A program made the translations under genes and the position numbers. The notes beneath the pieces are model-generated. The model searched no databases, was not told where the DNA came from, and was given only the letters and a program-made list of their open reading frames with translations. DNA of 51,375 nucleotides from Parcubacteria group bacterium (GTDB lineage Bacteria > Patescibacteriota > Microgenomatia > UBA1400 > PJMF01): the NCBI GenBank assembly GCA_943350175.1, contig CALQZX010000006.1, positions 1 through 51,375 on the forward strand, in the 5' to 3' direction. This document shows positions 4,870 to 48,415 of this stretch, in pieces (within the stretch, counting starts at the first letter, position 1; the number at the start of each line of letters is the position of its first letter).

Positions 4870-4907
4870 AGTTTTTCATTCAACCAGCCTCTCCCAAGCT
4901 TTTTTCA

Positions 4908-5086: not shown

Positions 5087-5116
5087 CCGAGGAGAAAAAT
5101 TCAAATTGCGACTAGT

Positions 5117-5539: not shown

Positions 5540-5624
5540 TTAAAATAAATAGACTTGCTTGCAAGTCAAAATACGTGGGAGGCTCAACCTTTACCCTAGC
5601 CGCTTGAACCACAGAAAGTAAAAC

Positions 5625-6356
5625 ATGGGAAGCAAAAAAAATGTCGACAAGACCGTCGAAGAAACCAAAATCAAGGTCGTCGAAGTAGAAACAGAAGTTA
5701 AGGCAGAAGGCGAAGTTGCTGAAATTGCAGTCGCCAAAAAACCAGCCAAAGCCAAAAAAGTTCGTGGCAAAAAATACCGCGCTGTTCGCTCTAAACTAGA
5801 AAAAGCCAAGCTTTATCCAGTTGCAGAAGCTGTCGAATTAGTCAAAAAACTTTCCTACACCAAATTTGTTGGCAGTGTCGAAGCTCACGTCGTCATTAGA
5901 GAAATTGGCGATAACGTAGGCCTAGCTCTACCTCATTCAACTGGCAAGACCGTCAAAGTCACCATCGTTGATGCTAAAGTTCTAGAAGAAATTGAAGCCG
6001 GTAACGTTGATGGTTTTGGAATCTTGGTCGCTCACCCAGAATTTATGGGTAAGCTAGCCAAATTTGCTCGTGTTCTTGGACCAAAAGGCTTAATGCCAAA
6101 TCCAAAAAATGGCACTTTGACCCCAAATCCAGAACTCAAGAAAAAAGAGCTCGAAGCCGGTAAATTCATGCTCAAATCTGAGAAAAAAGCTCCTCTAATG
6201 CACTTAATTATCGGCAAAACCGATATGAAGAGTTCTGAATTAGTCGAAAACGTTGAGGCTTTAGTTAAAGCCCTCAAAGGCAGAATTCTCAAATTGAGTC
6301 TTGCCCCAAGTATGGGACCTGGAATCAAAGTCCTCATTGAAGAGAGCGAAGAATAA
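5625..6356 (+). CDS. rplA: 50S ribosomal protein L1, with an N-terminal extension of about 45 aa
   Basis: ...VRGKKYRAVRSKLEKAKLYPVAEAVELVKKLSYTKFVGSVEAHVVI...LGPKGLMPNPKNGT... is canonical L1. The extension is charged and lysine/glutamate-rich. Confidence 0.92.
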   Translation: MGSKKNVDKTVEETKIKVVEVETEVKAEGEVAEIAVAKKPAKAKKVRGKKYRAVRSKLEKAKLYPVAEAVELVKKLSYTKFVGSVEAHVVIREIGDNVGLALPHSTGKTVKVTIVDAKVLEEIEAGNVDGFGILVAHPEFMGKLAKFARVLGPKGLMPNPKNGTLTPNPELKKKELEAGKFMLKSEKKAPLMHLIIGKTDMKSSELVENVEALVKALKGRILKLSLAPSMGPGIKVLIEESEE

Positions 6357-17040: not shown

Positions 17041-17789
17041 ACTTGTTGTTCTTTCGTCAAGTTGCCTCGCTTGGACACACTCAGATTTCCAAGACGCTCG
17101 TCATTGGCACCATATTCTCCCACCACCACTCCGTCTACCATGTTAACTGATCTCGAAGCAAATTTGAGATACTCCAAGTCATGTGTAACCATGATAACTG
17201 TTTTTCCTTGTTCATTAAACCGCTTAAATAAAGCCATGATCTCCTCACTGGCTTTAGAATCTAAATTACCGGTTGGCTCATCAGCTACGATCAAAGCTGG
17301 ATCGGAAATCAAAGCTCTAGCCAAAGAAACGCGCTGTTGCTGACCACCTGAGAGCTCAGCTGGGTTCTGCGTCGCTCCCTGATCCATTCCCACCATTGCT
17401 AATACTTCCAAAGCTCTTTTCTTTCTCTCTTCTTCTGGTAAACCACGCAAAGTGAGTGGAAAATAAACATTTTCCAACACACTCAAAGACTTCACCCAAT
17501 TAGATTGCTGATAAATAATACCGACTTGCTGTTTACGCATTTGTGCCCGCTCATCTTCACTGAAAGAATATAAGTTCTTACCCAAAAAAGTCACTTCCCC
17601 CTTAGTTGGCGGTTCCAAACCAAGCAGAATATTTAGCATCGTACTCTTTCCGCAACCAGATGGCCCGAAGAGGATCATGAAATCACCTTTATTAACCGAA
17701 AAACCAGCCCCTTTAATGATTTGAGTTTCTTGCGTACCCAAGTTAAAAGATTTGTGAATTCCAGTTAGTGCTAAGATCTGTTCTGACAT
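17037..17789 (-). CDS. ABC transporter ATP-binding protein (MacB/LolD/FtsE-like)
   Basis: Walker A GPSGCGKST, Q-loop, signature LSGGQQQRVSLARAL, Walker B LIVADEPTGNLD and H-loop VTHD. An ATGA-type overlap links it to the permease gene. Confidence 0.92.
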   Translation of the reverse strand: MSEQILALTGIHKSFNLGTQETQIIKGAGFSVNKGDFMILFGPSGCGKSTMLNILLGLEPPTKGEVTFLGKNLYSFSEDERAQMRKQQVGIIYQQSNWVKSLSVLENVYFPLTLRGLPEEERKKRALEVLAMVGMDQGATQNPAELSGGQQQRVSLARALISDPALIVADEPTGNLDSKASEEIMALFKRFNEQGKTVIMVTHDLEYLKFASRSVNMVDGVVVGEYGANDERLGNLSVSKRGNLTKEQQV

Positions 17790-17798
17790 ATATTATAT

Positions 17799-18194
17799 TT
17801 ATTCTATTGTTGTTGGATCGAAATTAATTTTCTTAACTTCTGGCCATAAAAATTTACTATCATTTTCTGTATGTAACGATAAATAAAAGCCTTCCATTGG
17901 AACATCTGTCAGTAAAACTGCATGAATTGTTCCAGGAACGCTACTTGTTTGCTCAGCAGTCTGCGAGCGATTTTTTTCACTTGAACCATATTTGACGAAG
18001 CCAATGGTCTCATTAGGAGTCGTCCAAAAAACTATCGCCTGATGAGGATCGATGAAAGTTACTTCGAAGTGATTGTTAAATTCACGTTGCTGTTTATTGA
18101 ATATCACCAGAGAGAAAGCTAGGCCGATAGCGAAAGCCACCAAAATGATTACGATGATTAACTTTTGTTTGAATGATGATTTTTTTAATTTCAT
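17799..18194 (-). CDS. Small membrane-anchored protein with an FN3/purple-acid-phosphatase-N-like ectodomain
   Basis: 131 aa. TM helix LIIVIILVAFAIGLAFSLVIF, then ...IDPHQAIVFWTTPNETIGFVKYGSSEK...GTIHAVLLTDV. This resembles the C-terminal FN3 units of the upstream giant protein. Its start overlaps the giant gene's stop in an ATGA. Confidence 0.6.
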   Translation of the reverse strand: MKLKKSSFKQKLIIVIILVAFAIGLAFSLVIFNKQQREFNNHFEVTFIDPHQAIVFWTTPNETIGFVKYGSSEKNRSQTAEQTSSVPGTIHAVLLTDVPMEGFYLSLHTENDSKFLWPEVKKINFDPTTIE

Positions 18195-21100
18195 TTCGCT
18201 AAAAATCCAAATATTAAAGACATATTAGAAACCACCAAATCCAGAGCATTGTCAGCTGCTTTTGGCGTAATCACCACTTTATCAACTGACTCTCCGACAT
18301 TACTGTATTGATCCTTGGACAAGGCTCTTAAGTGATAAACTTTGGAAGGAGTTAGTCCAGAAATCACCACCAAGTGGTGACTGGTCAGCGAACCATCTTC
18401 CTGAGTTTTTTGTGAATAGGTGGCACCACTACCTTCACCAAATTCTATCTGTGCCGAAGCTAGCTCGTCAGTGTTATATGAAACGACCAATTGCGCTGTA
18501 GCCTCTTCTCCGGCCCCAAGAATTTCTCCTTCAACCTTAAGATCTGTGATCTGCGGAGGGCGACTGTCAGCTGAGGTGGCAATTTGTTGTAATTCACCAG
18601 CAGCTTCATTACCAGCAGCATCCTTACCTTTGACTAAGATCGCATAAGTCATCTGTGGTTCTAAATCGTAAATAATCATCTGGTGTTTACCAGATTTAAG
18701 GGCCAAATTGACTTCATCTTTGGCAGCTCCAGGAGCAGTCACTGGATAATAAGTCACAATTGAAGATGTGCTGGTATTTGATTCCCAAGTGATCAAAAGA
18801 GTTGATCTGGCTGTGCCTTTGACCTGACTGATTTTAATATTTTTGACTTTTGGTCTGGGTAAAGTTTCAAAGGAATGGATTTCACCCTCGTACTCTTCAC
18901 CTTCCGAGTCAAAAGAGTTAATTTTGTAATAATATTTGGTGCCATCTTTAAGGTCAGATAGTTGAACTGTATGAGCACCTTCACCTGATCCAGTTGAAAT
19001 TTCCTCCATCCCACCAAAAGCCGATGATTCTCCGTAATAAAGTCTAATCTTGGCAGCATTTTTAGAAATAAACTCAATCAATGCTGTGTCCAATCCCATA
19101 CTTTTGACCTTGGGTTCTTCTGTAGTTGGAGCTGGCTCAGTTGTGAAAGTAGCTTCCTTTGATTCGCCAGTATTGCCATCCTCGTCAGTCCATTTAGCCA
19201 CGTAATAATAAGTGGTGCCTGGAGAAAGATTAAGCAGATTTAAAGTGTGACTAGTTGTCTGAGTGGAGTTCGAAACTTCTTCATCGAAGTAATCGCCAGA
19301 GCCAGTACCGTAAGCGATTCTAGAATCTGCTGTTCTAGTGGTAGCCCAAGAAGCGGTCGCTTTTCTGGTGGTAATGGCAGAAATAACTGGCTCTGCAGTT
19401 AAGCCGGCTGCTTCTATAAATTTACCATCAGGAAACAACTCGACAATTTCAGAAAAAACACCACAATTATTAGTGCTATCGCAAGCTTTAACTTTGTAAT
19501 AATAAGTTTGCTGCGTCAGCTTAGTATCAACGTAGGAAATTCCTCCACTTGTAGCGATTTGAGAGAAAACCTCACCATCTGTTGATCTATGAATTGAATA
19601 ATGATCCGTGACACCTTCCGCTGGTTTTTCCCAAGATAAAGCAATCTTCCATGAACTAGTGGCCTTGACAGACACGTCTGCGATATCCATATTTAAGGGA
19701 ATTCCAGGCGCCGTGGTGTCTGCTGTAAAAACAACTGAAGCATAATTAGAATAGTTAATGTTGCCAGCTTCATCTTTGGTTACAACATAAAACACATTTT
19801 CTCCTGGTAAAGTAGCGTATGAGCCAGCAATTAAGTTTCTAACACTCGTGGCAGTTGTACTGCGCGCAGTTGGCAAAGCGTTGATACTATAATAGTACGA
19901 CAAATTAGAAACAGATCCGTAATAAGTGTTGATGGCTGGCGGATCCCAACTGAAGGCAAAAGAATTTTCAGTATTTGATGATGGGGTAACTGCTAAATTA
20001 GTTGGAGGGGCCGGAGCATTGCCGCTATCCACGAAATAGTAAGGTGCTGAAGCATACCCGCTGTAATTTCCAGCTTCATCCTTACTGCGAACATAAAAAG
20101 TATTCGCGCCCACTTTATGGGAAGGAATGCCCGTTACAAAAGTGTCAGAAGTACACTGATCAGCTGAATAAATTCCTGTTTCAGCGCCAGTCTTGTAACA
20201 ATATTCTGTAACTAAGGCTCCACTGCTGGTGGCAGCGCTCCAGGAAAAATCAAAGTCATCGGTAGAGGTGTAACCAGATGGATCTGAGACTAAGTCAGCT
20301 GGAGCAGAAGAAGCCCCTCCATCATGCTTATAAATAAATGGCGCCCAAACATCGGTTGAAACATTTAGAGCATCATCAACTGTTTTAATTCTTAAATAAT
20401 AAGTAGTATCGTCAATTAGATTATTGGCAGAATAAGAACTATTGGTTTGCAACGACCCCGCTGAAGTTGGCTCAGCAGTTGCATCTGTGCCAAAATAAAC
20501 GTAATACCCTACCACACCAGAACCAGTGTTTGTATCTGAAGCTCCTCCAGTGGATTCAGCATCTGGCCAATCAAAGTACGGATTTTCATGACTATGCCAG
20601 TTGCCAGAAACGATAATGCTCCCTGGAGTATTATTGCTATAAGCAGCAAGCCCAGCGTTTTGCGGATTGGTTGGAGCAGCAGTGTCCTTGTAATAATTGA
20701 CGGTATAGTTATTAACAACTCCAGAATAAACTCCGTCGGCAGAAGTAAAGAAAAATTTAACTTGAATATAGCGCGCAGGTGGAGATTTGATTTCGTAATT
20801 ATAGGCAGTTCCATTGAACTTCTCTGCTGAGACCGCTGTCCAAGATGACCAAGTACTATTGTCGGCTGAACTGCGTGTCTGAATAGTTAAATCTGCATTG
20901 TCGGCAACAACATAATCAAGCTGCAAATTAACCCACTTATAAACTGAGGTCAAATCATGAACTGGAGAAATATAAGTGCCAATTTCTTCAAAACCAGAAT
21001 CTTCCGTTTGCATCACGTAGGTGTAAATTCCATCATTGAAGGTGTTTGCACCTGTGGCAGCGCCAGTCAACATGATCAGCTTGTTAACTCCATCGCTCTC

Positions 21101-24100
21101 ACCAGAACCGCCAGCAGAAACATTGGCTGGAGCATTGGCCAGAGTCGTCCAAATATTGTTAGCAATCGAATATTTGAAAAAATCATTGTCATTCTCACCA
21201 CGAGCTACATAGATATTGCCATCACCGCCATAGCTGGCAAAACCATCATTATAAACATCAATATTCAGATCACTAACAGCAGGATCGCTCCATGTGTTAG
21301 CCGTGATGTCATAGCGATAAAATGGATTATTGGCGACATTTTGTCCTCTTAGTGAATATATATAATTGCCATTTAAAACCAGCTCTGCACCGTAACCCAA
21401 ACCAACTGGACTAACTGCCATAGCTGACCACTTAGAACCGCTAGCTCCTTGTGTGTCGAAACGATAAAAAGTTGTATTAGTACCACCTCTATTTAAATAG
21501 ATATAGCGAGATCCGTCATAAACCATCGAGCTACCATAGTCTATAACTGCTGGAGTAGGGTCGTCTTCACTCCAAGTATTACTAGCAATATCATAGACAT
21601 AGAATTTTTGGACAAAATAGCCACCAGTAAAATAAATCTTATTTGCAGTACTGTCGTAAACTAAAGAAGAGCCATTGTATGCACCGACTGGCGCAACCGC
21701 CATTCTCTTAATTTCTCCACTTCTTGAATTATAACGAATGAAGTCGTCTGAATAGTTGCCCCTAGTCAGATAAAAATAATCGCCATCGCCTTTGACCAAG
21801 TCTTCACCATATCCTGGAGGAATGTTATTTACACCCTGATAGGTTCTGCCAAAAAGATCTCTATTTGGAATAAGCCAACTATCTTTACTAACATCATATT
21901 TATAGAAACTGGTGGTATTGTTGCCCACAATTGAGTAAAGATTGTCACCTATATTTTTGATCGAAGCTCCATAGTAAAAGGTGGTTGGTGCAGATTTAAC
22001 TTCTGACCAAGCTTGAGAGCCAACATCAAATTTATAAACCTTGTCAGAATAATTGCCAGCCAAGTAATAGACCGCATTGACACTCGGCACATATTCTATC
22101 GAGGAACCAAGGTAAGGTAATTGTGGCACATCAGGCAAAACTGTCCATGAATTGCTGTTAATATTATAAACAGAGAAACCATCGCGTAAGTTACCCTGAG
22201 TAGCGTAAACATAACCTCCAGCACGATCAATTGCTAGATCAGCTCCAGCATAAGCACTATTATTAACTGCATTGGCAGTAGCTCCAAAATCTAAATTTGC
22301 CAAAGATTCCCAACTATCATCAGTGGTGTTATAACGCCAAAAAGCATCGTCATCATTACCACGCATGGCATAAATATAGCCAAGATTGTCATATTCCATG
22401 GCTGCTCCATAGTAAACAGCCAAAGGAGTATCTGAAGCAGCTTCATCGCTCCATTCGTTAGCATCAATATCGTAACGATAAAAGGAAGAAGTATTGTTGC
22501 CTCGCAAACCATATAAATATCCACTAGGTCCTTCCACCACACCACCACCAATATAAATATTGGCTGGAGCATTAGCTAAAGTTGTCCAAAGATCTGTTTC
22601 CAAATCATAACTATAGAAAGTCGCAACGTTAGCTCCTCTAAAAACGTAAAGTTTATTGGAAGTTGAAACATAAGCAGTATTCTTTGCCCCATATTGCATT
22701 GCTGCTGGAGTATTACTCAAAGCTTCTTGCAACCAAAAACCATTTTCGCGACTAGCTAATTTCAATTGATTATTGGTTGTATTCACCTCTTCAGTGGTGC
22801 CAAGGAATTCTGTGACACTTAAACTCTGTGCTGGAGAAATACCTCCATAAACATAGGTAAATAAAGTGCTCGCTTCACTAATATTGCCGGCAATATCTTT
22901 GGTTTTAATCCTCAAATAATAACTACCGGTGGCTAAAGAGCTGGTGGAAACATAATTGGCATTGGTTTGATAATTGCCAACAATCTCTGGGTCAGCTACT
23001 TCATTATTGCCAAAATAAACATAATACCCAGCTACGCTAGTTTCTGCATCGCTAGCTCCAGTCCAAGAAAAATAAGGTCTGATATGAGAATAGCTTTCCC
23101 CATTACTAAGGGCTACTCCACCTACTTCCTGTGAACTAGCCACAACTGTACTAGGGTTAGTTGGCACACCAGCATCACCAGCGTAATCAATATTAATTTC
23201 ACTAAGTGTTGGTGTGTGAGTCAATCCACCTCCAGAAGCTAATAAAGTAACTCTAATTTGAATATATTTCTGTGCTGGAGAAGCAATATTGCTCCCACTA
23301 ACACTAGCCCAACTGCTCCAAGAAATAGAGTCATTGCTCGTCCTCGTCTCATAAAGAATGTCGCTGCTAGCTGGAGTTGATTCCACAACAGTGAAATCAC
23401 CAAAGCTAGACACATATTGCAAGTCTCTAGGCTCAGAAATCCAAGTGCCACTACTGACATATTTAGTTGCTCCTGGCGTGTAAGTCAAAACATAGGTTCT
23501 GCTATTACCATAAGCAATGTAAAAAGAACCACTCCCATCGTATTCAATGGAGGCTCCAGCATACAAACCCAAGTCTTGAGCTAGATAGCCATGAATATTT
23601 TGTAATTCCCTCCAAGAATTTTCACTAATTTCATACTCATACATGTCATTTTTATACCAACCAGCCAAAGCAACAATTTTTCCATCATAGTAACTTAGGT
23701 CAGTACCATAATAAGGAGCAAAGGGCGGCTTAGCCATTTCTGTCCAAGTGTTAGCTCCCCCACCAGAAATGGTATATTTGAAAAAGCGACTAATACCAAC
23801 ACCTGGAGCATAAAACAAATCTGTTCCGTTAGAAATTAGACGCGCACCTGCTCCTGCTTCAGAATCTACAGGTAAATCAGTCACCGAAACGTCATCCCAA
23901 GTGTTGCCTGAAATACTGTATCGCCAGAATGAAAGCGTTGTGTTCCCACGAGCAGCATAGATGTAATCTCCAGATCCTGGATAAGTTAAGGTGCCGCCTG
24001 CTCCAACCGTCGCTGGCGCATTGGCCATTGTTGACCAAGAATTACCTGCCACATCATAACGATAAAAAGTATTGGTATTGGAACCACGGAAAAAGTACAG

Positions 24101-25318
24101 ATAAGTTCCAGCTGCTACTCCTTTAGTGTCATCTGCCAACGTTGCTGGAGCAACTGTTAACGCAGTCCAAGTATTTGCAGAAACATTGTATCTATAGAAA
24201 GTAGTGCTGCTAGCTCCACGTAGAACATACATGTTTCCACCGTAATAGACGAAATCACTACCTGTAGAAAGAGCTGTGGGAGCATCCTCTACACCAAGGA
24301 AAGTATTAGCTGCAGGATCATATTTCCAGAAACTATATAAATTATTGCCTTGAAAAACATAGATGTAACCATCACTACTGTTGCTTATGGAACCAGCATA
24401 TCTGGATACGGCTGGTAAATTCGCTAGAGTTGACCAAGTATTAGTAGCGACAGTATAAGCATAAAAAGTTGCCGTACCTCCTTGTCTGGTTACATAAATT
24501 TTTGTTCCATCTGTCGATATGTCGACCTCTTCATTGATAGCAGCCGGCAAAGCAGCCACAGTTGACCAAATATTATTGACCAAATCATATCTATAAAAGG
24601 TAGTGGTATTAAGGCCACGTGGCGTATAAAGATAATTTCCAACTATTGTGAGATCAGCTCCTGCTCCGATTGTGGCAGGAGCACCGGTTAACGGAGTCCA
24701 AGAGTTGCTTCCAACATCATACTTATAAAAATCCTGAGTGCTATTACCACGCAAAGCATAAATGTTTTCGCCATCATTTTCCAAACTTCCACCAGCATAA
24801 ACCAGGTCAGGAAGGTCACTTAACATTTCCCATGAATTGCTGGCAATTGAATAACGGGCAAAAGCAGTCTGATAGCCACCAAACATGACGTAAATATAGC
24901 CGTCAAAATATTCTAATTCAGAACCAGAGTAAGTGCCGCGTGGCATATCTGCCAAAGTGGTCCATGTATTATCAGCCGGAGAATATTTCCAAAATAAAAC
25001 ATCTCCTAAACCTCTTGTAACATAAAGATCGTTGCCATCAGAAGCCAGAGCCGTACCAATTCCCATATTCAGGTCTGGAGTTCTCCAGCTTCTTGCCCCA
25101 ATTGTTCCAGCCGCTTCAATTGAGAAATCGCCTTCTTTGACAGAGCTGTCCAAACCAGTCATAGTGCCAGCACTCCAGTCAGAACTGGTGGTAAAAACGG
25201 CTTGATTGGCAGAAACAGAACTGGAGAAAAAGATGAAATTGAATACTACAAAAAATACGACTGATAAAATCGCAGCATGCAAACCAAAAAAATCGCGAAT
25301 TTTATATCTCGAATTCAT
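18191..25318 (-). CDS. Giant secreted protein (~2,375 aa) with two multi-blade Kelch-like beta-propeller regions, beta-sandwich modules and an FN3 array
   Basis: Signal peptide: MNSRYKIRDFFGLHAAILSVVFFVVFNFIFFSSSVSA/NQ. There are more than 20 repeats of about 47-50 aa with the pattern F[YW][RK]Y[DN]...N[ST]W[ST]...A.P...G...Y[IL]Y..RG. The C-terminal third has FN3-like units. The ORF track starts at a TTG at 25384; the ATG at 25318 immediately precedes the signal peptide and is preferred. Confidence 0.85.
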   Translation of the reverse strand: MNSRYKIRDFFGLHAAILSVVFFVVFNFIFFSSSVSANQAVFTTSSDWSAGTMTGLDSSVKEGDFSIEAAGTIGARSWRTPDLNMGIGTALASDGNDLYVTRGLGDVLFWKYSPADNTWTTLADMPRGTYSGSELEYFDGYIYVMFGGYQTAFARYSIASNSWEMLSDLPDLVYAGGSLENDGENIYALRGNSTQDFYKYDVGSNSWTPLTGAPATIGAGADLTIVGNYLYTPRGLNTTTFYRYDLVNNIWSTVAALPAAINEEVDISTDGTKIYVTRQGGTATFYAYTVATNTWSTLANLPAVSRYAGSISNSSDGYIYVFQGNNLYSFWKYDPAANTFLGVEDAPTALSTGSDFVYYGGNMYVLRGASSTTFYRYNVSANTWTALTVAPATLADDTKGVAAGTYLYFFRGSNTNTFYRYDVAGNSWSTMANAPATVGAGGTLTYPGSGDYIYAARGNTTLSFWRYSISGNTWDDVSVTDLPVDSEAGAGARLISNGTDLFYAPGVGISRFFKYTISGGGANTWTEMAKPPFAPYYGTDLSYYDGKIVALAGWYKNDMYEYEISENSWRELQNIHGYLAQDLGLYAGASIEYDGSGSFYIAYGNSRTYVLTYTPGATKYVSSGTWISEPRDLQYVSSFGDFTVVESTPASSDILYETRTSNDSISWSSWASVSGSNIASPAQKYIQIRVTLLASGGGLTHTPTLSEINIDYAGDAGVPTNPSTVVASSQEVGGVALSNGESYSHIRPYFSWTGASDAETSVAGYYVYFGNNEVADPEIVGNYQTNANYVSTSSLATGSYYLRIKTKDIAGNISEASTLFTYVYGGISPAQSLSVTEFLGTTEEVNTTNNQLKLASRENGFWLQEALSNTPAAMQYGAKNTAYVSTSNKLYVFRGANVATFYSYDLETDLWTTLANAPANIYIGGGVVEGPSGYLYGLRGNNTSSFYRYDIDANEWSDEAASDTPLAVYYGAAMEYDNLGYIYAMRGNDDDAFWRYNTTDDSWESLANLDFGATANAVNNSAYAGADLAIDRAGGYVYATQGNLRDGFSVYNINSNSWTVLPDVPQLPYLGSSIEYVPSVNAVYYLAGNYSDKVYKFDVGSQAWSEVKSAPTTFYYGASIKNIGDNLYSIVGNNTTSFYKYDVSKDSWLIPNRDLFGRTYQGVNNIPPGYGEDLVKGDGDYFYLTRGNYSDDFIRYNSRSGEIKRMAVAPVGAYNGSSLVYDSTANKIYFTGGYFVQKFYVYDIASNTWSEDDPTPAVIDYGSSMVYDGSRYIYLNRGGTNTTFYRFDTQGASGSKWSAMAVSPVGLGYGAELVLNGNYIYSLRGQNVANNPFYRYDITANTWSDPAVSDLNIDVYNDGFASYGGDGNIYVARGENDNDFFKYSIANNIWTTLANAPANVSAGGSGESDGVNKLIMLTGAATGANTFNDGIYTYVMQTEDSGFEEIGTYISPVHDLTSVYKWVNLQLDYVVADNADLTIQTRSSADNSTWSSWTAVSAEKFNGTAYNYEIKSPPARYIQVKFFFTSADGVYSGVVNNYTVNYYKDTAAPTNPQNAGLAAYSNNTPGSIIVSGNWHSHENPYFDWPDAESTGGASDTNTGSGVVGYYVYFGTDATAEPTSAGSLQTNSSYSANNLIDDTTYYLRIKTVDDALNVSTDVWAPFIYKHDGGASSAPADLVSDPSGYTSTDDFDFSWSAATSSGALVTEYCYKTGAETGIYSADQCTSDTFVTGIPSHKVGANTFYVRSKDEAGNYSGYASAPYYFVDSGNAPAPPTNLAVTPSSNTENSFAFSWDPPAINTYYGSVSNLSYYYSINALPTARSTTATSVRNLIAGSYATLPGENVFYVVTKDEAGNINYSNYASVVFTADTTAPGIPLNMDIADVSVKATSSWKIALSWEKPAEGVTDHYSIHRSTDGEVFSQIATSGGISYVDTKLTQQTYYYKVKACDSTNNCGVFSEIVELFPDGKFIEAAGLTAEPVISAITTRKATASWATTRTADSRIAYGTGSGDYFDEEVSNSTQTTSHTLNLLNLSPGTTYYYVAKWTDEDGNTGESKEATFTTEPAPTTEEPKVKSMGLDTALIEFISKNAAKIRLYYGESSAFGGMEEISTGSGEGAHTVQLSDLKDGTKYYYKINSFDSEGEEYEGEIHSFETLPRPKVKNIKISQVKGTARSTLLITWESNTSTSSIVTYYPVTAPGAAKDEVNLALKSGKHQMIIYDLEPQMTYAILVKGKDAAGNEAAGELQQIATSADSRPPQITDLKVEGEILGAGEEATAQLVVSYNTDELASAQIEFGEGSGATYSQKTQEDGSLTSHHLVVISGLTPSKVYHLRALSKDQYSNVGESVDKVVITPKAADNALDLVVSNMSLIFGFLAK

Positions 25319-25506
25319 GTCTATAAATATGATAGATAGTCGTTTAAAAGAAGTCGAGTCTATGTTTTTTCTAAACAAGATCAAAAATGATCTAAATATA
25401 TAAAATTTTTAAAAATTACCAACAAAAAACAACATTATCTAAAATTAATCTTAAATTCAACAAAATAAACCGCTTTGAGTTAAAACTTTCAAGTGGCTAG
25501 AAACCC

Positions 25507-25722: not shown

Positions 25723-26226
25723 ATGCCAAATCAACATAATCAAGAACAAATTAAGATTATTCAAGAAAAATTGGATAAGGCAGCTTCCATGGTCGTTATC
25801 GACTACGCTGGCGCCAAAGTCAAAGATTTGACCGATCTCCGTGCTGCTCTTAGAGAAGCCGGTGGTGAAATGTTTGTCACCAAGAACACCCTGATCGACA
25901 TCGCCGTTGGTAAAGGCAAGGTCAGCGACTCCCTACAAGGCATGAGTGCGGTGGTTTTTTCTTATAAAGATCCAGTCGCCGCTATCAAAGCTTTAGTGAA
26001 ATTTCACGATGACACAGAGCTTTTAGATATCAAGCAAGGTTTCATGGATGGCAAAGTTTTATCAGTTGAAGAAGTTCAAGCTCTAAGCAAATTGCCAGGT
26101 AAGAACGAACTAATTGTCATGTTAATTCAGACACTTAAGTCTCCAGGTCAAGGTTTGGTCAATGTTCTTCAGGCAAGTGCTCGTAATTTAGTTTACGTCA
26201 TGAAGGCTATCGCCGACAAAAAATAA
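25723..26226 (+). CDS. rplJ: 50S ribosomal protein L10
   Basis: 167 aa. ...VVIDYAGAKVKDLTDLRAALREAGGEMFVTKNTL... is the typical L10 block. The gene lies directly upstream of rplL. Confidence 0.92.
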   Translation: MPNQHNQEQIKIIQEKLDKAASMVVIDYAGAKVKDLTDLRAALREAGGEMFVTKNTLIDIAVGKGKVSDSLQGMSAVVFSYKDPVAAIKALVKFHDDTELLDIKQGFMDGKVLSVEEVQALSKLPGKNELIVMLIQTLKSPGQGLVNVLQASARNLVYVMKAIADKK

Positions 26227-26277
26227 TATCAATTAGATTAGATTTAATTAATAAAGTAGTAAGAAAGGAACAAATAT

Positions 26278-26664
26278 ATGGCAGAACTCTCAGAAAAAGT
26301 TCAAAAGCTCGTTGACGCAGTCAAGGAACTCTCCTTAATGGAAGTTTCAGAACTCGTAACCGCTTTAGAAGACACCTTTGGTGTCACCGCAGCCGCCCCT
26401 ATGATGATGGGTGCCGCCGCTGGTGCTCCAGCCGCAGCTGCTGTGGAACAAGACGAATTTGACGTCATCCTCAAAGAAGCTGGCAGCAACAAAATTGCCG
26501 CCATCAAAGCAGTGCGTACTCTTAAACCAGAATTAGGTTTAGGTGAAGCCAAAGCTTTCGTCGAATCAGCTCCTAAGCCAGTCTTAGAAGGTGCCAAGAA
26601 GGAAGATGCTCAAGCAGCCAAAAAGACCTTGGAAGAGGCCGGTTGCGTCGTTGAATTGAAGTAA
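26278..26664 (+). CDS. rplL: 50S ribosomal protein L7/L12
   Basis: N-terminal dimerisation helix, an Ala/Pro-rich hinge ([21 protein letters not shown]), then [66 protein letters not shown]. Confidence 0.97.
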
Positions 26665-27871: not shown

Positions 27872-28690
27872 TTAGAAAATTTCTTTGAAGGTCAGACAGA
27901 TGAATTCGATCAACCGGAGCTGTCTATTTCTGCGCCAGGGTTGTTTTATTAAACGCCACAGCCATTCCAAGCCCATTTTTTGCATAAGAAATGGCGCTCT
28001 TTTCACTTTGGCAAAAAGGAAATCAAAAGATCCACCCACTGCCATAGCAATTTTTGCCTGGTTTTCCTCTAATAATTGCAAGTGATTAATGATCCACTCT
28101 TCCTGATCTGGCGCACCAAGAGCCACAAAGACCAAATCCGGCTTTAGCTGCTTGATGATTTCTGCCAAAGCTTCTTCTTCAATCGGTAAAATTTCTGCTT
28201 TTTCCTGATAACCCTCAGTCCAATAGAGGTTCTCACCCATTTTTTTCAAACTCTTCTTATCTTCAAAGGCTTCGCCTTCAAAAGAGCCCATGTAATCACG
28301 TCCACCAATAATCAAAGTTTTTAGGTTCTTTTGTTTGGCTAAAAAAAGCAAATGCTCAACTAGTTCTACACCAGGGAGACGTTCTTTGATTTTCTGCTTG
28401 GTTTTGCCAAAAAATTTTAGGATTCTTGACGCCATCACTAGGCCAATGCCATCAGGCAATAAATAATCGGCCTTAGCTAGAGTGTCGGCAAAAACCAGGT
28501 CATGCTTGGCTACAACTATTTGCTCTGGATTTGGCGTAAAAATAGATAAAGTTTTGGTTTTTGAAGCAGAACCATCACCGGAAAAAACTCCAGCAGCAGA
28601 TAAAAAATGGTCAAAAAAAGAAAAAAGCTCTTTTTTAGAAACATTTAAAATAGATAAGCCAAAAAGATTGCTCGTCTGCATTGTGGACAT
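27872..28690 (-). CDS. WecG/TagA/CpsF-family glycosyltransferase
   Basis: ...LPDGIGLVMASRIL..., IIGGRD..., FVALGAPDQEEWI, AVGGSFDFLFAKVKRAP..MQKMGLEWLWRLIKQPWRR are the family blocks. Confidence 0.8.
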   Translation of the reverse strand: MSTMQTSNLFGLSILNVSKKELFSFFDHFLSAAGVFSGDGSASKTKTLSIFTPNPEQIVVAKHDLVFADTLAKADYLLPDGIGLVMASRILKFFGKTKQKIKERLPGVELVEHLLFLAKQKNLKTLIIGGRDYMGSFEGEAFEDKKSLKKMGENLYWTEGYQEKAEILPIEEEALAEIIKQLKPDLVFVALGAPDQEEWIINHLQLLEENQAKIAMAVGGSFDFLFAKVKRAPFLMQKMGLEWLWRLIKQPWRRNRQLRLIEFICLTFKEIF

Positions 28691-28741: not shown

Positions 28742-31432
28742 ATGGATATCCAAAGTTTGCGTCAAAAGCACCCTCGTTTGATTTATCAGGGTTTCAACTT
28801 GGCCAAAGAAAACAACGATCTTGTACTAACTTTTGATTTGGTTCTGGAACCAAATATTAACTTCTCGCCAACTCTTAGAATAAAGAATCTGCGTCAAGAA
28901 ATCCTCAGTCAAATCGACCAAAAAGAAAATTTAGACCCTCAACTAGATAGTCTATTTTTTCATCTTGGCCTAGCTGAAATTCCTAGTTATTTCAAAGCCG
29001 CTTGTCCTGCTGAAATAGTCATCAAGCATCAAGGCCAAATCACAGAAAAAGCGCTTAGCTTTTGGCATGATTTACTCATCAATGGACTGGGAGAGTTTTA
29101 TTACCAAAACCAAATCGACTTCACCGATGAGAATTTCGTTAAAATTAAACTCGAAAAAACTGAGTCTGTCGGCTCAGCAAAAAAACAAAAATTTATCCCC
29201 ACCAAAAACAGTCAGGTTTTAATTCCTGTTGGCGGCGGGAAAGATTCGGCAACGGTCCTAGCAATGATGGAGGAAAGAAAATTGCCTTATGATGTGCTCT
29301 TACTTGCTCCTCACGCCCCCGCCGCCAAAAAAATCGCTTCACTCCTACAAAAAAATGGTTTGTGCCAGAAAATCATCGAACTCGAGCGAACAATTGATCC
29401 GCAGCTAATCGAGCTTAATAAAAATGGCTATCTCAATGGCCACACTCCATTTAGTGCCTACTTGGCCTTCGCCAGTTCAACTATCGCCTATCTTTATGGT
29501 CAGGAAAATATCTTACTCGGCAATGAAGCCAGCAGCGAAGAAGAAAATTTGCTTTACCTAGGTCATAAAATTAATCACCAGTACTCTAAAAGTCTGGATT
29601 TTGAGAAAAAATTCTCTGAATACTCCGACAACCACCTTTTTGCTGAAATTTCTACTCCACCAAAATATTTATCTCTACTGCGCTCACTTTCTGAACTAGA
29701 AATTACACAAAAACTTTGTGAGTTCGCAGCCAAAGATCCTAGATTCGCCGAAGTGCTGACTACCTTTAAGAGTTGCAATGTCGGCCAAAAAAATGATATC
29801 TGGTGTCACAATTGTCCAAAATGCGCTTTTGTTTTCACCATGTTCTCAGCATTTTTGGATGAAAAATTTGTTAGTGAGAAAATTTTCAAAGAAAATCTTT
29901 TTGCCAAAAACTCTTTAGAACAAACTTTCCTCGATTTGGCTGGTTTAGGCGACAAGAAACCCTTCGAATGCGTCGGCACTTTTGCCGAAGTGTGTCAGGC
30001 TTTATCGCTCGCCTACCAAAAAAGCAAAGCCCCAAGTCCATTTCTCAAGGAAATTGCACAAAAAATTGCTCAAAAAGAACTCATGGATAAATTGAGAGAT
30101 AAGTCGATTCTCATTCTTGGTATGGGTCGTGAAGGTTTTTCTAGCTTAGAGTTTTTGCGCAAAAACTTTCCAAACAAAAAAATCGCCGTGGCTGACGAGC
30201 AAGAGAAAAAATTACCAGTAGATGAAGAGCTCACTGCTTTTTTTGGCAAAAATTATCTGGAAAAAATCGACCAGTACGACTTAATCATCAAAACCGCCGG
30301 CATTCCTCTAACGACTCCAGAAGTCCAAAAAGCCATCGCTAAAGGCAGTGAAATTCTCTCAAACACTCAGATTTTCTTTACTCTTTGTGTGGGTAAAATC
30401 ATCGGCATCACCGGCACCAAAGGCAAAAGCACCACTTCCAAACTAACTTATGAAATTCTGCGCGATGCTTCTAAAGATACGGTTTTACTCGGCAACATTG
30501 GCGAAGCTCCACTCAATCAATTAGACAAAATTACTAAAGAAACTCTAGTCGTTGATGAGCTTTCTTGTCACCAATTAGCAGAGCTAAAAGAAAGTCCTCA
30601 CGTCGCCGTCATCTTGGACATTAAATCCGAACATTTGGACTATTACAAAGATTTCGCCAGTTACTTTGAAGCCAAAAGTGCCATTGCTCGTTTTCAAAAA
30701 GAAAGCGACTACTTAATCTACAATCCAGAGCTTGAAGGCGCTGCGAAAATGGCTTCACTAAGCCCTGCCAAAAAAATAACTCACAGCTTAACCAAAACCG
30801 CAGAGGTCTATAAGAAAAACAACCAAATTTTCTACCAAGAAGAATCGATCATCGATATCAATGAAATTTCCTTAATTGGCGAGCACAATCTTTACAACAT
30901 TATGCCAGCCATTTTGGTCGGGAAACTATTGGGCGTCAAAAACGAATCAATTAGAAAGACCATCAAAAATTTCCACAACTTATCTCATCGCCTAGAACTA
31001 ATCGCGGAAATAAATGAGGTCAAATACTTCGATGATTCCATTGCCGTCAATCCTCATGCTGCAATTATGGCTATCAAAAGTTTTCCAAAAAACTCCGTCA
31101 TTCTCATTGCTGGTGGCTATGAAAGAGATCAAGATTTTACCGAATTAGCCAAGACGATCCTTGAATATCAAGTCAAAGCCCTCATCGCTTTGCCAACTAC
31201 TGGCCAGCGCTTGATTGATTTTGTCTTGAAAGAAAAAAACATATCTGAGATTGACATCGCAACAGAAACAGCAGAAACCATCCAAGAAGCCGCGAAAATC
31301 GCCTATGAAAAAGCTCAAGTAAATGATATTGTTTTGCTCAGCCCAGCTAGTGCTAGCTACAATAGCTTCAGCAACTATGAAGAAAGAGGCGATGCTTTCA
31401 AAAAAGCAGTTTTGGAAAACCAAGCGAAATAA
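28742..31432 (+). CDS. murD: Fusion protein: an N-terminal ~430-aa PP-loop-like domain (possible MurL-type epimerase) joined to C-terminal UDP-MurNAc-L-Ala--glutamate ligase (MurD)
   Basis: The C-terminal half has ILILGMGREGFS (Rossmann), GITGTKGKSTTS (Mur ligase P-loop) and downstream Mur ligase middle and C-terminal blocks. The N-terminal half has IPVGGGKDSATV (an SGGxDS-like PP-loop) and CHNCPKCAFVF. Confidence 0.8.
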   Translation: MDIQSLRQKHPRLIYQGFNLAKENNDLVLTFDLVLEPNINFSPTLRIKNLRQEILSQIDQKENLDPQLDSLFFHLGLAEIPSYFKAACPAEIVIKHQGQITEKALSFWHDLLINGLGEFYYQNQIDFTDENFVKIKLEKTESVGSAKKQKFIPTKNSQVLIPVGGGKDSATVLAMMEERKLPYDVLLLAPHAPAAKKIASLLQKNGLCQKIIELERTIDPQLIELNKNGYLNGHTPFSAYLAFASSTIAYLYGQENILLGNEASSEEENLLYLGHKINHQYSKSLDFEKKFSEYSDNHLFAEISTPPKYLSLLRSLSELEITQKLCEFAAKDPRFAEVLTTFKSCNVGQKNDIWCHNCPKCAFVFTMFSAFLDEKFVSEKIFKENLFAKNSLEQTFLDLAGLGDKKPFECVGTFAEVCQALSLAYQKSKAPSPFLKEIAQKIAQKELMDKLRDKSILILGMGREGFSSLEFLRKNFPNKKIAVADEQEKKLPVDEELTAFFGKNYLEKIDQYDLIIKTAGIPLTTPEVQKAIAKGSEILSNTQIFFTLCVGKIIGITGTKGKSTTSKLTYEILRDASKDTVLLGNIGEAPLNQLDKITKETLVVDELSCHQLAELKESPHVAVILDIKSEHLDYYKDFASYFEAKSAIARFQKESDYLIYNPELEGAAKMASLSPAKKITHSLTKTAEVYKKNNQIFYQEESIIDINEISLIGEHNLYNIMPAILVGKLLGVKNESIRKTIKNFHNLSHRLELIAEINEVKYFDDSIAVNPHAAIMAIKSFPKNSVILIAGGYERDQDFTELAKTILEYQVKALIALPTTGQRLIDFVLKEKNISEIDIATETAETIQEAAKIAYEKAQVNDIVLLSPASASYNSFSNYEERGDAFKKAVLENQAK

Positions 31433-31450: not shown

Positions 31451-32830
31451 ATGAAACAAAAATTAGCCATGTTCGTCCTCTACTACCTGCGTTTTTTTGC
31501 TAAGCTTCAGCTGCAAAAGAACAAAACCTGCAAAGTGGTGGGTATCACTGGCAGCGCCGGCAAAAGTAGCACTAGAAACGCCATTTACAGTGTTCTCAAA
31601 AATAAATACAAAGTTAAAGCCAGCTTCAAAGCCAATTCTGAGTCAGGCATTTCTTTAGACATCCTTGGCTTGGAGATGAAAAACTATTCCAATTTAGATT
31701 GGCTGCGAGTTTTGATTCTCGCTCCAATTCGCTTCCTAAGCTACTTCGAAAAATTTGATTACTATCTGGTAGAAATGGGCATCGATAGCCCAAATCCACC
31801 AAAAAATATGGATTTTTTACTCAGCATTATCAGACCAAAAATGGCTGTTTTTCTCAATGCTGGACTAAATCACAGTTTTGCCTTTGACCATTTGGTTACT
31901 GAAAAAGATCCAATAGAAAGAAAAAAACAAGTTATTCGTGAGATAGCCAAAGAAAAAGCCAAGTTGGTTCTGTCACTTCCAAAAACTGGCTTCGCTTTTT
32001 TAAATTTTGATGACCGCAACATCAGAGAAATTTGTCAAAATATTGAGGCTGAAACCTATTCTTTTGGCAGCGATAATATTTGCGATTTGCAAATCATTGG
32101 TCATGAAACACAAATCAATGAACAAGAAATTAGCAGTAATTTCACTTTCCAAATTCAAAGACACTACGGCAAATTGAAGGCAAAAAATCAAAAATTAGAT
32201 ATTAAAATCAAAAACTTTCTTTTGCCAAAACATTTTGCTTACGGCCTGGCCTCTGCCATCTTAATTGGCCTTAAGGCCGGCCTCGACACTAAAGAGATAA
32301 GAGATTCTCTAGAGAATCATCTCAATCTTCCACTTGGTCGCGCCACCGCCATTCATGGCAAAAACAATTCCATCATTATAGATAGCTCCTACAATGCCTC
32401 TTCCATGAAAGACATGATCGAGCTGGTCACAAAAATTAAAAACAAAGGTAGAAAGTTGGCTCTACTTGGAGATATGAGAGAACTTGGTGAAGAGACCAAG
32501 CAAGTTCACGAAGAAATTGCTCTGCTCGCTTCCGAAAGCTTTGATCAAATTTTCCTAGTTGGTCAGGAAATGCGAAATTACGCTCTACCAATTATTCAAA
32601 ATAATAATACAGTTCAAGCCACTCACTTTGAAAATTCCAAAGAAGCCGGCAAGAAAATTGCCAGCTTGTTAAAAGACGGCGACATCATTTTGGTTAAAGG
32701 CTCACAGAACACAATTTTCTTAGAAGAAGCGATCAAAGAAATGATGAAAGAAGAAAAAGAAGCTAAAAAATTACTTTGCAGACAAAACTCTTGGTGGCTA
32801 AGCATCAAAAGCCAAGCTCTCACTAAATAA
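31451..32830 (+). CDS. murF: Mur ligase, MurF-like (UDP-MurNAc-tripeptide--D-Ala-D-Ala ligase)
   Basis: VVGITGSAGKSSTRN (P-loop), IIDSSYNASSMKDMIELV and LGDMRELGEETKQVHEEI are MurF-typical. Confidence 0.75.
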   Translation: MKQKLAMFVLYYLRFFAKLQLQKNKTCKVVGITGSAGKSSTRNAIYSVLKNKYKVKASFKANSESGISLDILGLEMKNYSNLDWLRVLILAPIRFLSYFEKFDYYLVEMGIDSPNPPKNMDFLLSIIRPKMAVFLNAGLNHSFAFDHLVTEKDPIERKKQVIREIAKEKAKLVLSLPKTGFAFLNFDDRNIREICQNIEAETYSFGSDNICDLQIIGHETQINEQEISSNFTFQIQRHYGKLKAKNQKLDIKIKNFLLPKHFAYGLASAILIGLKAGLDTKEIRDSLENHLNLPLGRATAIHGKNNSIIIDSSYNASSMKDMIELVTKIKNKGRKLALLGDMRELGEETKQVHEEIALLASESFDQIFLVGQEMRNYALPIIQNNNTVQATHFENSKEAGKKIASLLKDGDIILVKGSQNTIFLEEAIKEMMKEEKEAKKLLCRQNSWWLSIKSQALTK

Positions 32831-33847
32831 ATCGATATTTTTAAGCATCGCCACGGTTCCCATACTAGCCAATAAATCTGGAGCGTCGAGCAAAGCCACT
32901 GGCAAGGAAAACCTGGTGATTAGAAAATCTTCCAAACCATGAATTTTAGCCAATCCACCAGATAGTAGCAAGCCTTTTTGCAAAACATCAGCAACTAAAT
33001 CTGGAGGAATTTTTGTCAATAAAGCATTGATTAAAGACTCATATTCCAACTTGAAGTAATCGGCAATTGAATCCAAATCACTAGACTTAATTTTTAACTC
33101 CATTGGACTAGCTCCATTAATCGTTTTGCCAGTGATTACCTGGCTCCTTTGCGAAGGAATTAAAGAGAGAACATTTTTTTTCAAAATTTCAGCACTTTCC
33201 AAAGAAATGGCAAAATTCTCTGCCAAAGCCAAGTGTCCAATTATTTCTTCATTCAAACGATCTCCACCAAAATCGCTGTCTTCATTAAATAATAATGAAC
33301 CAAGAGCGATGGCGCTAAATTGAGCTCCACTGGATCCCATCTGCAAGAACAGAGTCCCAGAAGTATCGGCTACAGGGACTCCAGCTCCAATCGCAGCCGC
33401 CAGAGGAGCTGCAATTAAATTAACTCTGGAAAAACCTAGTTCATAAAAAAATTGACTGAGAATTTTGCGGTCTAGAATTGTTGCCGATGCCGCCGTGGTC
33501 ACCATGACAATTGGATTAAAAACCAAACCCTTGAAAACCTTCTTCAACAGTTCTTTCATCAAAATAGCACCTGCCTCTTGATCTAAGATCCTGCTTTTGG
33601 CAAAAGGAAAAATTATCTCAGCAAAACTATCTAGTCTACCTTTCATCGCTAAGGCTTCTTTGCCAATCGCCAACAATTTATGATTATCTTTTCTTCTGGC
33701 TATACAAGCGTCCTCTTCCAAAACTTTGGCTCTAAAATCGACTGGAGACAACTCCCACACATCATTCTTGAGATCTGAAATCATGACGATTCTGATCTTT
33801 GATGAGCCCAGATCGATGGCGATTTTTTTTGAAAGACTTTTAAACAT
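32798..33847 (-). CDS. Divergent MreB/actin-family protein with degenerate nucleotide-binding motifs
   Basis: It is collinear with MreB: IAIDLGSSKIRIV (phosphate-1), IAAPLAAAIGAGVPV, LFLQMGSSGAQFSAIALG (phosphate-2 position), FGGDRLNEEII and LLSGGLAKIHGLEDFL. The 3' end overlaps murF convergently by 33 nt. Confidence 0.7.
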   Translation of the reverse strand: MFKSLSKKIAIDLGSSKIRIVMISDLKNDVWELSPVDFRAKVLEEDACIARRKDNHKLLAIGKEALAMKGRLDSFAEIIFPFAKSRILDQEAGAILMKELLKKVFKGLVFNPIVMVTTAASATILDRKILSQFFYELGFSRVNLIAAPLAAAIGAGVPVADTSGTLFLQMGSSGAQFSAIALGSLLFNEDSDFGGDRLNEEIIGHLALAENFAISLESAEILKKNVLSLIPSQRSQVITGKTINGASPMELKIKSSDLDSIADYFKLEYESLINALLTKIPPDLVADVLQKGLLLSGGLAKIHGLEDFLITRFSLPVALLDAPDLLASMGTVAMLKNIDLFSESLAFDA

Positions 33848-47871: not shown

Positions 47872-48415
47872 AGATCAATCTTTTTTATATTAATAACGCA
47901 TAATATACTAAAATATTAATATTCAAAGCAGGCTGCAGCCAAAGGTTTTTCACAAAATTAAATACCCAAAACCTAAAAATCGCTGTCTAAGATCGCGAAT
48001 CAATTTACTTAAAAAGTAATTTTCCAGATCTGATAGTCAATTCAACACATTCAAAAACCCTTCTCAAACCCGTATTTTTAGTTTTCACTTCACATAATAC
48101 ACAAAAACTAAGTCAATTCACAAGTGCTAAAGTTGTGGAAAAGGTGAAGAGCTAAAAACACCATTTCTGACTAAGAAAGCCAAGTTGATCTATTTTGCTT
48201 GGTTTTGACTATTATGAAAACCCGTGAAAACCAAGCGGGAATGAATTTCTAGTTCTCTCGAGTGAAGATAATTTTGACTGAAGAGAAAAACCCGAAATAA
48301 TCTTCTCTCTTGCTAGCAAATCTACTAACATCTAGACTGATAGCAGTTAACAAAAAGGGCCCAAAAAAAACGTCTAATGATCTGGATTAGACAAGAAAAA
48401 AAAGACTAGTCAAGC

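Follow-up and report, generated by a model that had tools for sequence, protein, structure and literature searches.

A predicted bifunctional MurL-MurD2 enzyme encoded by a single gene of a Parcubacteria group bacterium

The contig CALQZX010000006.1 of a Parcubacteria group bacterium (assembly GCA_943350175.1) was analysed over a stretch of 51,375 nucleotides (nt), which we call the window. One gene of the window encodes a protein of 896 amino acids (aa) in which a homologue of the epimerase MurL is followed by a ligase of the MurD2 type, and this gene probably encodes a bifunctional MurL-MurD2 enzyme (probability about 0.8). MurL (XOO_1319) and MurD2 (XOO_1320) were described as a two-gene system of Xanthomonas oryzae by Feng et al. 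2017 (as reviewed in PMC8788868 and PMC5808125). The biochemical claim for the fused protein rests on homology, on specificity residues and on gene coupling. An earlier note, made from the letters of the window, had suggested such a fusion, and the suggestion is supported here by the MurL profile, by the MurD2 residues and clade, and by the PP-loop fold of the N-terminal half; the activity itself is predicted.

The fused gene and its MurL-like half

The open reading frame (ORF) has exactly the extent that the earlier note gave it (coordinates of all features are collected in Table 2). The two motifs that the note had read in its N-terminal half, VGGGKDS and CHNCPKC (aa 355-361, nt 29804-29824), are both present. 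More than 100 full-length homologues from independent assemblies repeat the same architecture at 35-92% identity, which excludes a chance ORF or a read-through artefact. All of the named ones are Patescibacteria, and the N-terminus M..LR.KHP.F.Y is common to the homologues. The AlphaFold2 model of the whole protein is compact, with a predicted local distance difference test score (pLDDT) of 94.5 and a predicted template modelling score (pTM) of 0.89. It has no disordered linker between the halves, which are joined by a continuous, rigid helix. The two halves may share an active-site cleft or pass the substrate through a channel.

The N-terminal half was compared with protein family profiles and with an annotated MurL. 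NF041275 (MurL) was the sole significant NCBIfam match for aa 1-450 (E 4e-59, 200 bits), and aligned aa 60-426 with profile positions 53-395 of 447. The annotated MurL of Xanthomonas sacchari matched the N-terminal half in BLASTP with 31% identity over 341 aa (E 3e-41). The murL-murD2 genes of X. sacchari were taken from NZ_CP010410.1, a 508-kb chromosome piece filed in PLSDB as "plasmid unnamed". The profile comparison of residues 1-430 that the earlier note had proposed thus gave a similarity specific to MurL.

An alignment of 114 homologues has 31 invariant columns, and 29 of these are identical in X. sacchari MurL. The residues kept there include GGGKDS, N232-G-H-x-P, E262, N278-H-Q-x-x-K283, S344-C-N, C355, C358, K360, C361 and K406-P-x-x-C410. 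All 120 of the closest full-length homologues carry precomputed matches to the Pfam families PF26299 (MurL_N) and PF26298 (MurL_epimerase_C), and both are named on a relative that is 75% identical to the window protein (P0002). Our local Pfam copy gave nothing significant for the N-terminal half (best match YoaP, E 0.08); since this copy predates the MurL families, the null scan is not evidence against MurL homology. A sequence search of the PDB with the N-terminal half returned a chance match only (BaiE, E 0.5), and no MurL structure at the sequence level. The earlier note had also considered that this domain might belong to a different characterised PP-loop enzyme; at the sequence level no such enzyme matched. 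On these comparisons we assign the N-terminal half (aa 1 to about 430) as a MurL homologue.

The fold of this half was predicted with AlphaFold2 from the 114-sequence alignment (pLDDT 96.4, pTM 0.94). Foldseek against the PDB returned QueC of Bacillus subtilis (3bl5), QatC and Cap9, and then TtuA and other PP-loop ATP pyrophosphatases, with probabilities of 0.97-1.00. The match to QueC had an E value of 1.7e-4 and a template modelling (TM) score of 0.64 on the target, the TM score on the query being only 0.3-0.4. In the model, GGGKDS lies between the strand 159-162 and the helix 167-178, a position that agrees with the SGGxDS PP-loop site of the superfamily. The PP-loop guess of the earlier note is therefore borne out by the structural matches, and the N-terminal half is modelled as a QueC-like PP-loop ATP pyrophosphatase fold.

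The spacing of the Cys cluster resembles what we take to be the zinc site of QueC, and the four cysteines are predicted by analogy to form a metal site. A fifth invariant cysteine, Cys410, is a candidate acid/base residue and may be the catalytic base. Enzymes of the QueC type begin with the adenylation of a carboxylate. The MurL of X. oryzae consumes one ATP, forms AMP and works strictly from L to D, and its authors proposed that the alpha-carboxylate of Glu is adenylated (PMC8788868, PMC5808125). A QueC-like fold is compatible with this published AMP-forming mechanism and supports the adenylation proposal. Both reviews (2018, PMC5808125; 2021, PMC8788868) describe MurL as a protein without known conserved domains, a gap that the modelled QueC-like assignment fills.

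The ligase half

The Mur ligase part begins at ILILGMGREG (aa 456) and carries the Pfam domains MurD-like_N (454-539), Mur_ligase_M (556-726) and Mur_ligase_C (749-869). It matches TIGR01087 (murD) over aa 456-890 with 337.5 bits, above the cutoff of 212, so the earlier description of the C-terminal half as a MurD-type ligase was right. The catalytic residues for ATP, Mg and the carbamylated lysine are all intact (K562, equivalent to K115 of Escherichia coli MurD; K645, equivalent to K198; and others). The best solved relative is MurD of Streptococcus agalactiae (3lk7, 225 bits).

MurD and MurD2 differ in four residues near the D-Glu site. Asp182, Lys348, Ala414 and Leu416 of E. coli MurD correspond to Glu197, Arg358, Pro433 and Phe435 of X. 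oryzae MurD2 (PMC8788868). The double mutation E197D/R358K turns X. oryzae MurD2 into a D-Glu ligase, the mutants P433A and F435L keep L-Glu specificity, and K319T makes E. coli MurD accept L-Glu (PMC8788868). We aligned the ligase half with E. coli MurD, using numbering without the initial Met (Ec positions), which was checked. The window protein has Glu, Ile and Arg at Ec182, Ec319 and Ec348, the same combination as X. sacchari MurD2 and one that occurs in none of the 17 canonical MurDs (Table 1). The canonical set was drawn from Proteobacteria, Bacillota, Bacteroidota, Fusobacteriota and Chlamydiota, mostly from mraY-murD-ftsW contexts where annotated. The 39 ligases encoded next to murL are those murD genes downstream of murL that were complete enough to be scored, from loci of several phyla. 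The use of a residue other than Lys at Ec319 as a sign of MurD2 is proposed here from the alignment and has no precedent in the literature.

Table 1. Residues at three E. coli MurD positions (numbered without Met) in MurL-associated and canonical ligases.
Set	Ec182	Ec319	Ec348
120 fused homologues	E 98, D 20	I/L 120	R 118
39 MurDs directly downstream of a separate murL	E 36	I/L 39	R 39
X. sacchari MurD2, partner of the annotated MurL	E	I	R
17 canonical MurDs	D, A or N, never E	K 15	K 14, R 3 (Bacilli)

A neighbour-joining tree was built from 423 columns of 66 sequences, with Kimura distances and 100 bootstrap replicates. One clade, recovered in 98 of 100 replicates, united X. sacchari MurD2 with the fused and the murL-adjacent ligases and left the 17 canonical MurDs outside. 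The Bacteroidales ligases encoded next to murL stood apart from the canonical MurDs of Prevotella and Parabacteroides, from which we conclude that the clade tracks the association with MurL and not taxonomy. The comparison of MurD with MurD2 that the earlier note had asked for places the C-terminal half, by its residues E630 and R795 and by its clade, with the MurD2 type.

Two ligases of Oscillospiraceae, from Pusillibacter faecalis (L083) and Subdoligranulum variabile (L089), lie beside the MurD2 clade and have Asn, Ile and Lys at the three positions. With these two included the bootstrap value was 84/100. No murL was found in the same record as either gene, and the two ligases may represent an intermediate or relaxed-specificity form.

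Gene coupling, distribution and proposed function

Like the fused gene, the separate genes follow the order murL then murD2, and the two genes share 20 nt in X. sacchari, where murL is the upstream one. Wherever the locus left room, murL was followed by murD on the same strand, with the exception of an actinomycete subgroup described below. The 358 retrieved proteins, scored with a MurD hidden Markov model built from a clean MurD alignment, included 130 MurL-MurD fusions and 2 in the reverse order MurD-MurL. The latter are proteins of 883 aa (P0114) and 932 aa (P0263). A Bacteroidales metagenome-assembled genome (MAG) has its own MurL-MurD fusion, a genuine single ORF (L011:1496-4222) nested among unfused Bacteroidales pairs, and in Patescibacteria the fused and unfused forms interleave in the tree. 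The reverse-order fusions and the nested Bacteroidales fusion indicate that fusion arose several times and in both orientations, which is a classic signature of two enzymes that share one intermediate.

Two further candidates, in L020 and L073, were rejected as fusions; each consists of neighbouring genes that are read in different frames within long GC-rich open frames. A gene of Rokubacteria (L003:1493-3751, - strand) lies in a stop-to-stop frame of 753 aa, of which MurL takes up only aa 294-748. The 290 aa upstream, rich in Arg, Pro and Gly, are most likely a spurious GC-rich extension and not an extra domain.

The genomes of GTDB species were scanned with a GC-rich back-translation of the motif NGHTPFSA. 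A true MurL-like gene was present in nearly all of the 78 loci obtained, which come from rumen Bacteroidales, Oscillospiraceae, Lachnospiraceae, Enterocloster aldenensis, Terriglobia and other Acidobacteriota, Rokubacteria, a Planctomycetales MAG, a deltaproteobacterial MAG, Nealsonbacteria and Woesebacteria. Xanthomonadales were absent among the 78 loci, the Xanthomonas motif reading NGHIPVTA in place of NGHTPFSA. In protein clusters at 50% identity, 2229 were MurL-like at E <= 1e-3 and 899 at E <= 1e-30. The MurL-MurD fusion occurred in more than 100 Patescibacteria clusters, and the unfused pair in Bacteroidales, Clostridia, Acidobacteriota, Rokubacteria and Planctomycetes. The 2021 review places the pathway in relatively few genera, namely some Gammaproteobacteria, Alphaproteobacteria and rare actinobacteria, to which the 2018 review adds cyanobacteria, a fungus and an amoeba, with orthologues of low similarity (PMC8788868, PMC5808125). 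In the literature searched there was no mention of MurL in Patescibacteria, of a MurL-MurD fusion or of a PP-loop assignment.

The fusion architecture is already visible in databases through the recent Pfam families MurL_N and MurL_epimerase_C. Most sources name the fused proteins "UDP-N-acetylmuramoyl-L-alanine--D-glutamate ligase", although JGI names a few of them as epimerase. Judged from the residues above, the name "D-glutamate ligase" is probably wrong on the stereochemistry of the substrate.

A subgroup of actinomycete MurL-like proteins (L029, L030, L033, L034, L054, L060, L067, L071 and L081) has the motifs SGGKDS and NHQWTK and scored only 131 bits against NF041275. No murD was found within the fetched loci of this subgroup, which may have a different substrate or function. 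One of its genes (L081:5842-7242) is on a true mobilizable plasmid, pPaSha1 of Pseudonocardia alni, and adjoins a gene for a WD40 protein. Users of PLSDB should be aware that many of its "plasmids" are fragments of chromosomes or entire chromosomes; genes of the dcw cluster occur on records as long as about 5.5 Mb.

We propose the following reaction sequence for the fused protein. The C-terminal MurD2-type ligase would add L-Glu in the first step. In the second, the MurL domain would spend another ATP, releasing AMP and pyrophosphate, and adenylate the alpha-carboxylate of that L-Glu; this would acidify the alpha-proton, which would be removed and returned from the opposite face. Hydrolysis of the adenylate would then give the D-Glu product irreversibly, and the product would pass to MurE and then to the neighbouring MurF-like ligase. 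It is likely by homology that this distant Patescibacteria protein has the same activity as the X. oryzae enzymes, and the fusion may be the sole route to D-Glu in its host.

Several observations weigh against this proposal. The 200 bits scored against NF041275 do not reach the equivalog cutoff of 700 bits. However, all the homologues tested from outside Xanthomonadales scored below it (131-271 bits; Enterocloster 271, Terriglobia 268, a cyanobacterium 253), which indicates that the cutoff delimits the Xanthomonadales clade and not the family. The ligase half passes the canonical equivalog TIGR01087, so that a name taken only from the profile would be D-Glu ligase; this model does not separate MurD from MurD2. 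Identity to X. sacchari MurD2 is only 24%. Two of the four positions listed in the review are not MurD2-like, with A871 and Y873 standing at the positions of P433 and F435 of X. oryzae, but these positions are not decisive, because L-Glu specificity survives both mutations, P433A and F435L. At Ec182, Asp replaces Glu in about 17% of the fusions. The window protein also has Val769 (31046-31048) at the position of E. coli Thr321, which is unusual even within its clade: Thr is found there in all 39 murL-adjacent MurDs, in X. sacchari MurD2, in 8 of 8 other fusions sampled and in 16 of the 17 canonical MurDs (Ser in one). For the window protein and its Patescibacteria homologues as a whole, the activity is predicted from sequence.

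The remaining points concern other sources of D-Glu. No murI or D-amino-acid aminotransferase domain was found in the ORFs of at least 100 aa that lie wholly inside the window, two ORFs that cross its ends being unscanned, and absence can be checked only there. A paper cited in PMC11974145 reports in its title an active glutamate racemase of Ca. Saccharimonas aalborgensis. Patescibacteria are thus not uniformly without murI, and a sole route to D-Glu stays an inference for the present host.

These last points lead to a reading in which the protein is bifunctional but MurI or a D-amino-acid aminotransferase is present as well; the ligase would then be relaxed, and MurL would correct the mis-incorporation of L-Glu or add redundancy. 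Arg at Ec348 is also found in MurD of Streptococcus mutans, which accepts some L-Glu (PMC8788868). The murL-murD2 pairs that we examined in Bacteroidales and Clostridia lie outside any dcw cluster, and the active MurI of Saccharibacteria named in the title above points the same way. Cultured members of lineages such as Clostridia and Bacteroidales, in which murL-murD2 pairs occur, normally have murI. Against this reading, small Patescibacteria genomes rarely keep redundant pathways. The combination of Glu, Ile or Leu, and Arg is essentially fixed across the MurL-associated clade, as in Xanthomonas MurD2, which argues against a relaxed ligase, and the recurrence of fusions, in either order, speaks for a two-step pathway that is obligatory. 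X. oryzae MurD2 has extremely low activity with D-Glu (PMC8788868, PMC5808125). We consider this reading unlikely.

A different product is also conceivable. The MurL-like domain could adenylate the alpha-carboxylate of Glu and then pass it to ammonia, giving iso-glutamine, so that the protein would be a ligase with an amidating enzyme. QueC, the closest solved fold, presumably acts in this manner, by adenylating a carboxylate that then reacts with ammonia; the low NF041275 score and the actinomycete and plasmid MurL-like subgroup without an adjacent murD, which may act differently, could be read in the same sense. No glutaminase or other ammonia-delivering partner was found encoded near the fusion, however. 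The 29 of 31 invariants shared with Xanthomonas MurL include the five cysteines, KPFECVG, NHQ.SK and NGH.P, and the L-Glu-type residues of the partner ligase make sense only if an epimerase acts after it. Amidation is accordingly a quite improbable outcome. It is more improbable still that an ordinary D-Glu-specific MurD was fused to an unrelated PP-loop enzyme, or that an assembly or frameshift error joined two adjacent genes: the passed TIGR01087 cutoff, the name "D-glutamate ligase" in most databases and the empty local Pfam scan would fit, but the N-terminal match is specific to MurL, the ligase lies inside the MurD2 clade, the fusion recurs in over 100 independent proteins down to 35% identity, and the linker is a structured helix in the model.

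If the activity of a MurL-MurD2 enzyme were confirmed, cell-wall D-glutamate would be made without a racemase across a large part of bacterial diversity, and an alternative route to D-Glu would prove to be widespread and under-annotated. A single polypeptide would perform the whole two-step, two-ATP conversion, which would offer a one-gene handle and a natural channelling system. MurL would gain a structural frame, a QueC-like PP-loop fold with a Cys cluster, that accounts for the formation of AMP. The alignment also yields a practical rule, in which Glu, Ile or Leu, and Arg at Ec182, Ec319 and Ec348 in a ligase adjacent to or fused with MurL separate MurD2 from MurD. Where metabolic reconstructions of Patescibacteria take murI as the marker of peptidoglycan synthesis, their outcome would be affected, and the matter bears on the question of narrow-spectrum inhibitors of MurI versus MurD2 and MurL.

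A wider proposal can be made only tentatively, at odds that we put slightly below even. It holds that large uncultured lineages, including Microgenomates-type Patescibacteria, many rumen Bacteroidales, Clostridia, Acidobacteriota, Rokubacteria and Planctomycetes, owe a large share, possibly all, of their peptidoglycan D-Glu to ATP-dependent epimerisation. The fusions would have been selected for direct hand-over of the L-Glu intermediate, MurL would adenylate its substrate on a QueC-like PP-loop fold, with a metal held by four Cys and an invariant fifth Cys as catalytic base, and thousands of "D-glutamate ligase" names would be wrong on the substrate.

Genomic neighbourhood and comparison with known systems

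The neighbours of the fused gene are listed in Table 2. The earlier note stated that murF follows immediately. A Mur ligase ORF does begin 18 nt downstream, but it can only be called MurF-like, its best match TIGR01143 being below the cutoff, and no N-terminal Mur ligase domain was detectable in it. An exact look-up of the sequence of the window protein gave no record, and synteny was therefore read from the locus of the 75% identical relative (L098), where the adjacency of the MurF-like gene is kept.

Table 2. Features of the fused gene and of its neighbours in the window.
Feature	Position	Strand	Evidence or remark
MurL-like epimerase and MurD2-type ligase ORF	28742..31432	+	ATG start, 896 aa, stop codon included
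MurL N-terminal subdomain, beta-sheet and helices	aa 1-~150, 28742..29191	+	AlphaFold2 model, alignment; boundary approximate; SYWKA motif conserved, Y83 and K85 invariant; MurL_N on the 75% identical relative P0002
MurL catalytic domain, QueC-like PP-loop ATP pyrophosphatase fold (modelled)	aa ~155-430, 29204..30031	+	Foldseek
PP-loop VGGGKDS, predicted ATP alpha/beta-phosphate binding loop	aa 163-169, 29228..29248	+	G165, G166, K167 and D168 invariant in 114 homologues, same in X. sacchari MurL
Cys cluster C345-x9-C355-x2-C358-x2-C361 (SCN...WCHNCPKC), predicted QueC-type Zn site	29774..29824	+	four Cys invariant, kept in X. sacchari MurL
Cys410 of KPFECVG, fifth invariant Cys	29969..29971	+	K406, P407 and C410 invariant; conserved in Xanthomonas MurL
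Linker helix joining both enzymes	aa 433-453, 30038..30100	+	DSSP of full-length model, pLDDT >90
MurD2-type UDP-MurNAc-L-Ala:glutamate ligase, three Mur ligase domains (assigned)	aa 454-890, 30101..31411	+	Pfam, NCBIfam, alignment, tree
Glu630, stereospecificity determinant (E. coli MurD Asp182, X. oryzae MurD2 Glu197)	30629..30631	+	alignment; PMC8788868
Ile767 (E. coli MurD Lys319)	31040..31042	+	Ile/Leu in all MurL-associated MurDs and Xanthomonas MurD2
Arg795, stereospecificity determinant (E. coli MurD Lys348, X. oryzae MurD2 Arg358)	31124..31126	+	alignment; PMC8788868
MurF-like Mur ligase, 459 aa, probably co-transcribed	31451..32830	+	18 nt after the fusion stop; TIGR01143 best match, 177 bits, below the cutoff of 289
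WecG/TagA-family glycosyltransferase, divergent, upstream, cell-envelope context	27872..28690	-	domain matches; neighbour kept in L098 and L099
mreB-like gene, convergent, downstream	32798-33847	-	overlaps the 3' end of the MurF-like gene by 33 nt

The rest of the window contains ribosomal protein genes, tRNA synthetases, ComEC, a giant Kelch and fibronectin type III protein and similar genes. Since the named homologues are all Patescibacteria, the stretch has the look of a small-genome member of this group. An Rfam scan of the window for rRNA found none, and two tRNAs only. The giant ORF (18191-25384, - strand) encodes 2397 aa with many Kelch repeats and fibronectin type III or Ig-like domains and is probably a surface protein; a pair of ABC/FtsX-MacB transporter genes (14479-17789) precedes it. 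The ribosomal genes nusG-rplK-rplA (3253-6356) and rplJ-rplL (25723-26664) are about 19 kb apart in the window, versus about 5.6 kb in the locus of the relative (L098:1-8103). The additional DNA, which contains an Ldh_2 dehydrogenase, an ORF of 816 aa without a Pfam match, the ABC transporter and the Kelch giant, forms a variable insertion within the cluster of ribosomal protein genes. An open frame of at least 988 aa (48410-51373, +) with a low-complexity start rich in Asn, Glu and Ser runs off the end of the window. A 126-aa protein (632-1012, +) carries a dockerin type I domain (E 8e-13), which is unusual in a small-genome bacterium.

Compared with the MurL and MurD2 of X. oryzae, the fused protein combines the same two enzyme families in the same order. 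What is new is the architecture and the lineage; the underlying two-enzyme system is a known one. The MurL half of the fused protein shares GGGKDS, NGH.P, NHQ.SK, SCN, WC..CPKC and KPFECVG with Xanthomonas MurL, and its ligase half shares Glu, Ile and Arg with MurD2. The system of X. oryzae has two genes, whereas here the two enzymes, with predicted activities, form one polypeptide and are joined by a helix; its host lies outside the taxa listed in the reviews, and its identity to the X. sacchari proteins is 31% (MurL) and 24% (MurD2). Xanthomonas MurD2 also has Pro and Phe at Ec414 and Ec416, in contrast to Ala and Tyr here.

With canonical MurD (EC 6.3.2.9), which receives its D-Glu from MurI, the ligase half shares the three-domain Mur ligase fold, the catalytic residues and a passing TIGR01087 score. 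It differs in having Glu, Ile and Arg where the canonical enzyme has Asp, Lys and Lys (Ec182, Ec319 and Ec348), in its separate clade (98/100), in its location outside an mraY-murD-ftsW cluster and in the attached epimerase.

QueC (7-cyano-7-deazaguanine synthase) and the QueC-like enzymes QatC and Cap9 share with the MurL half the PP-loop ATP pyrophosphatase fold, a loop of the SGGxDS type and a C-terminal C..C..C cluster. There is no detectable sequence similarity to QueC, however, and MurL has an extra N-terminal domain of about 150 aa and other invariant motifs. The outcome also differs, being the formation of an amide or nitrile in QueC and predicted epimerisation with hydrolysis in MurL.

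Among known fusions, MurC-Ddl, MurE-MurF and MurF-Alr (NF011171, NF008896 and NF008897) likewise join cytoplasmic enzymes of the same pathway, and their models match weakly here, but they unite other partner enzymes. The NCBIfam matches of the window protein include no model for a bifunctional MurL-MurD2.

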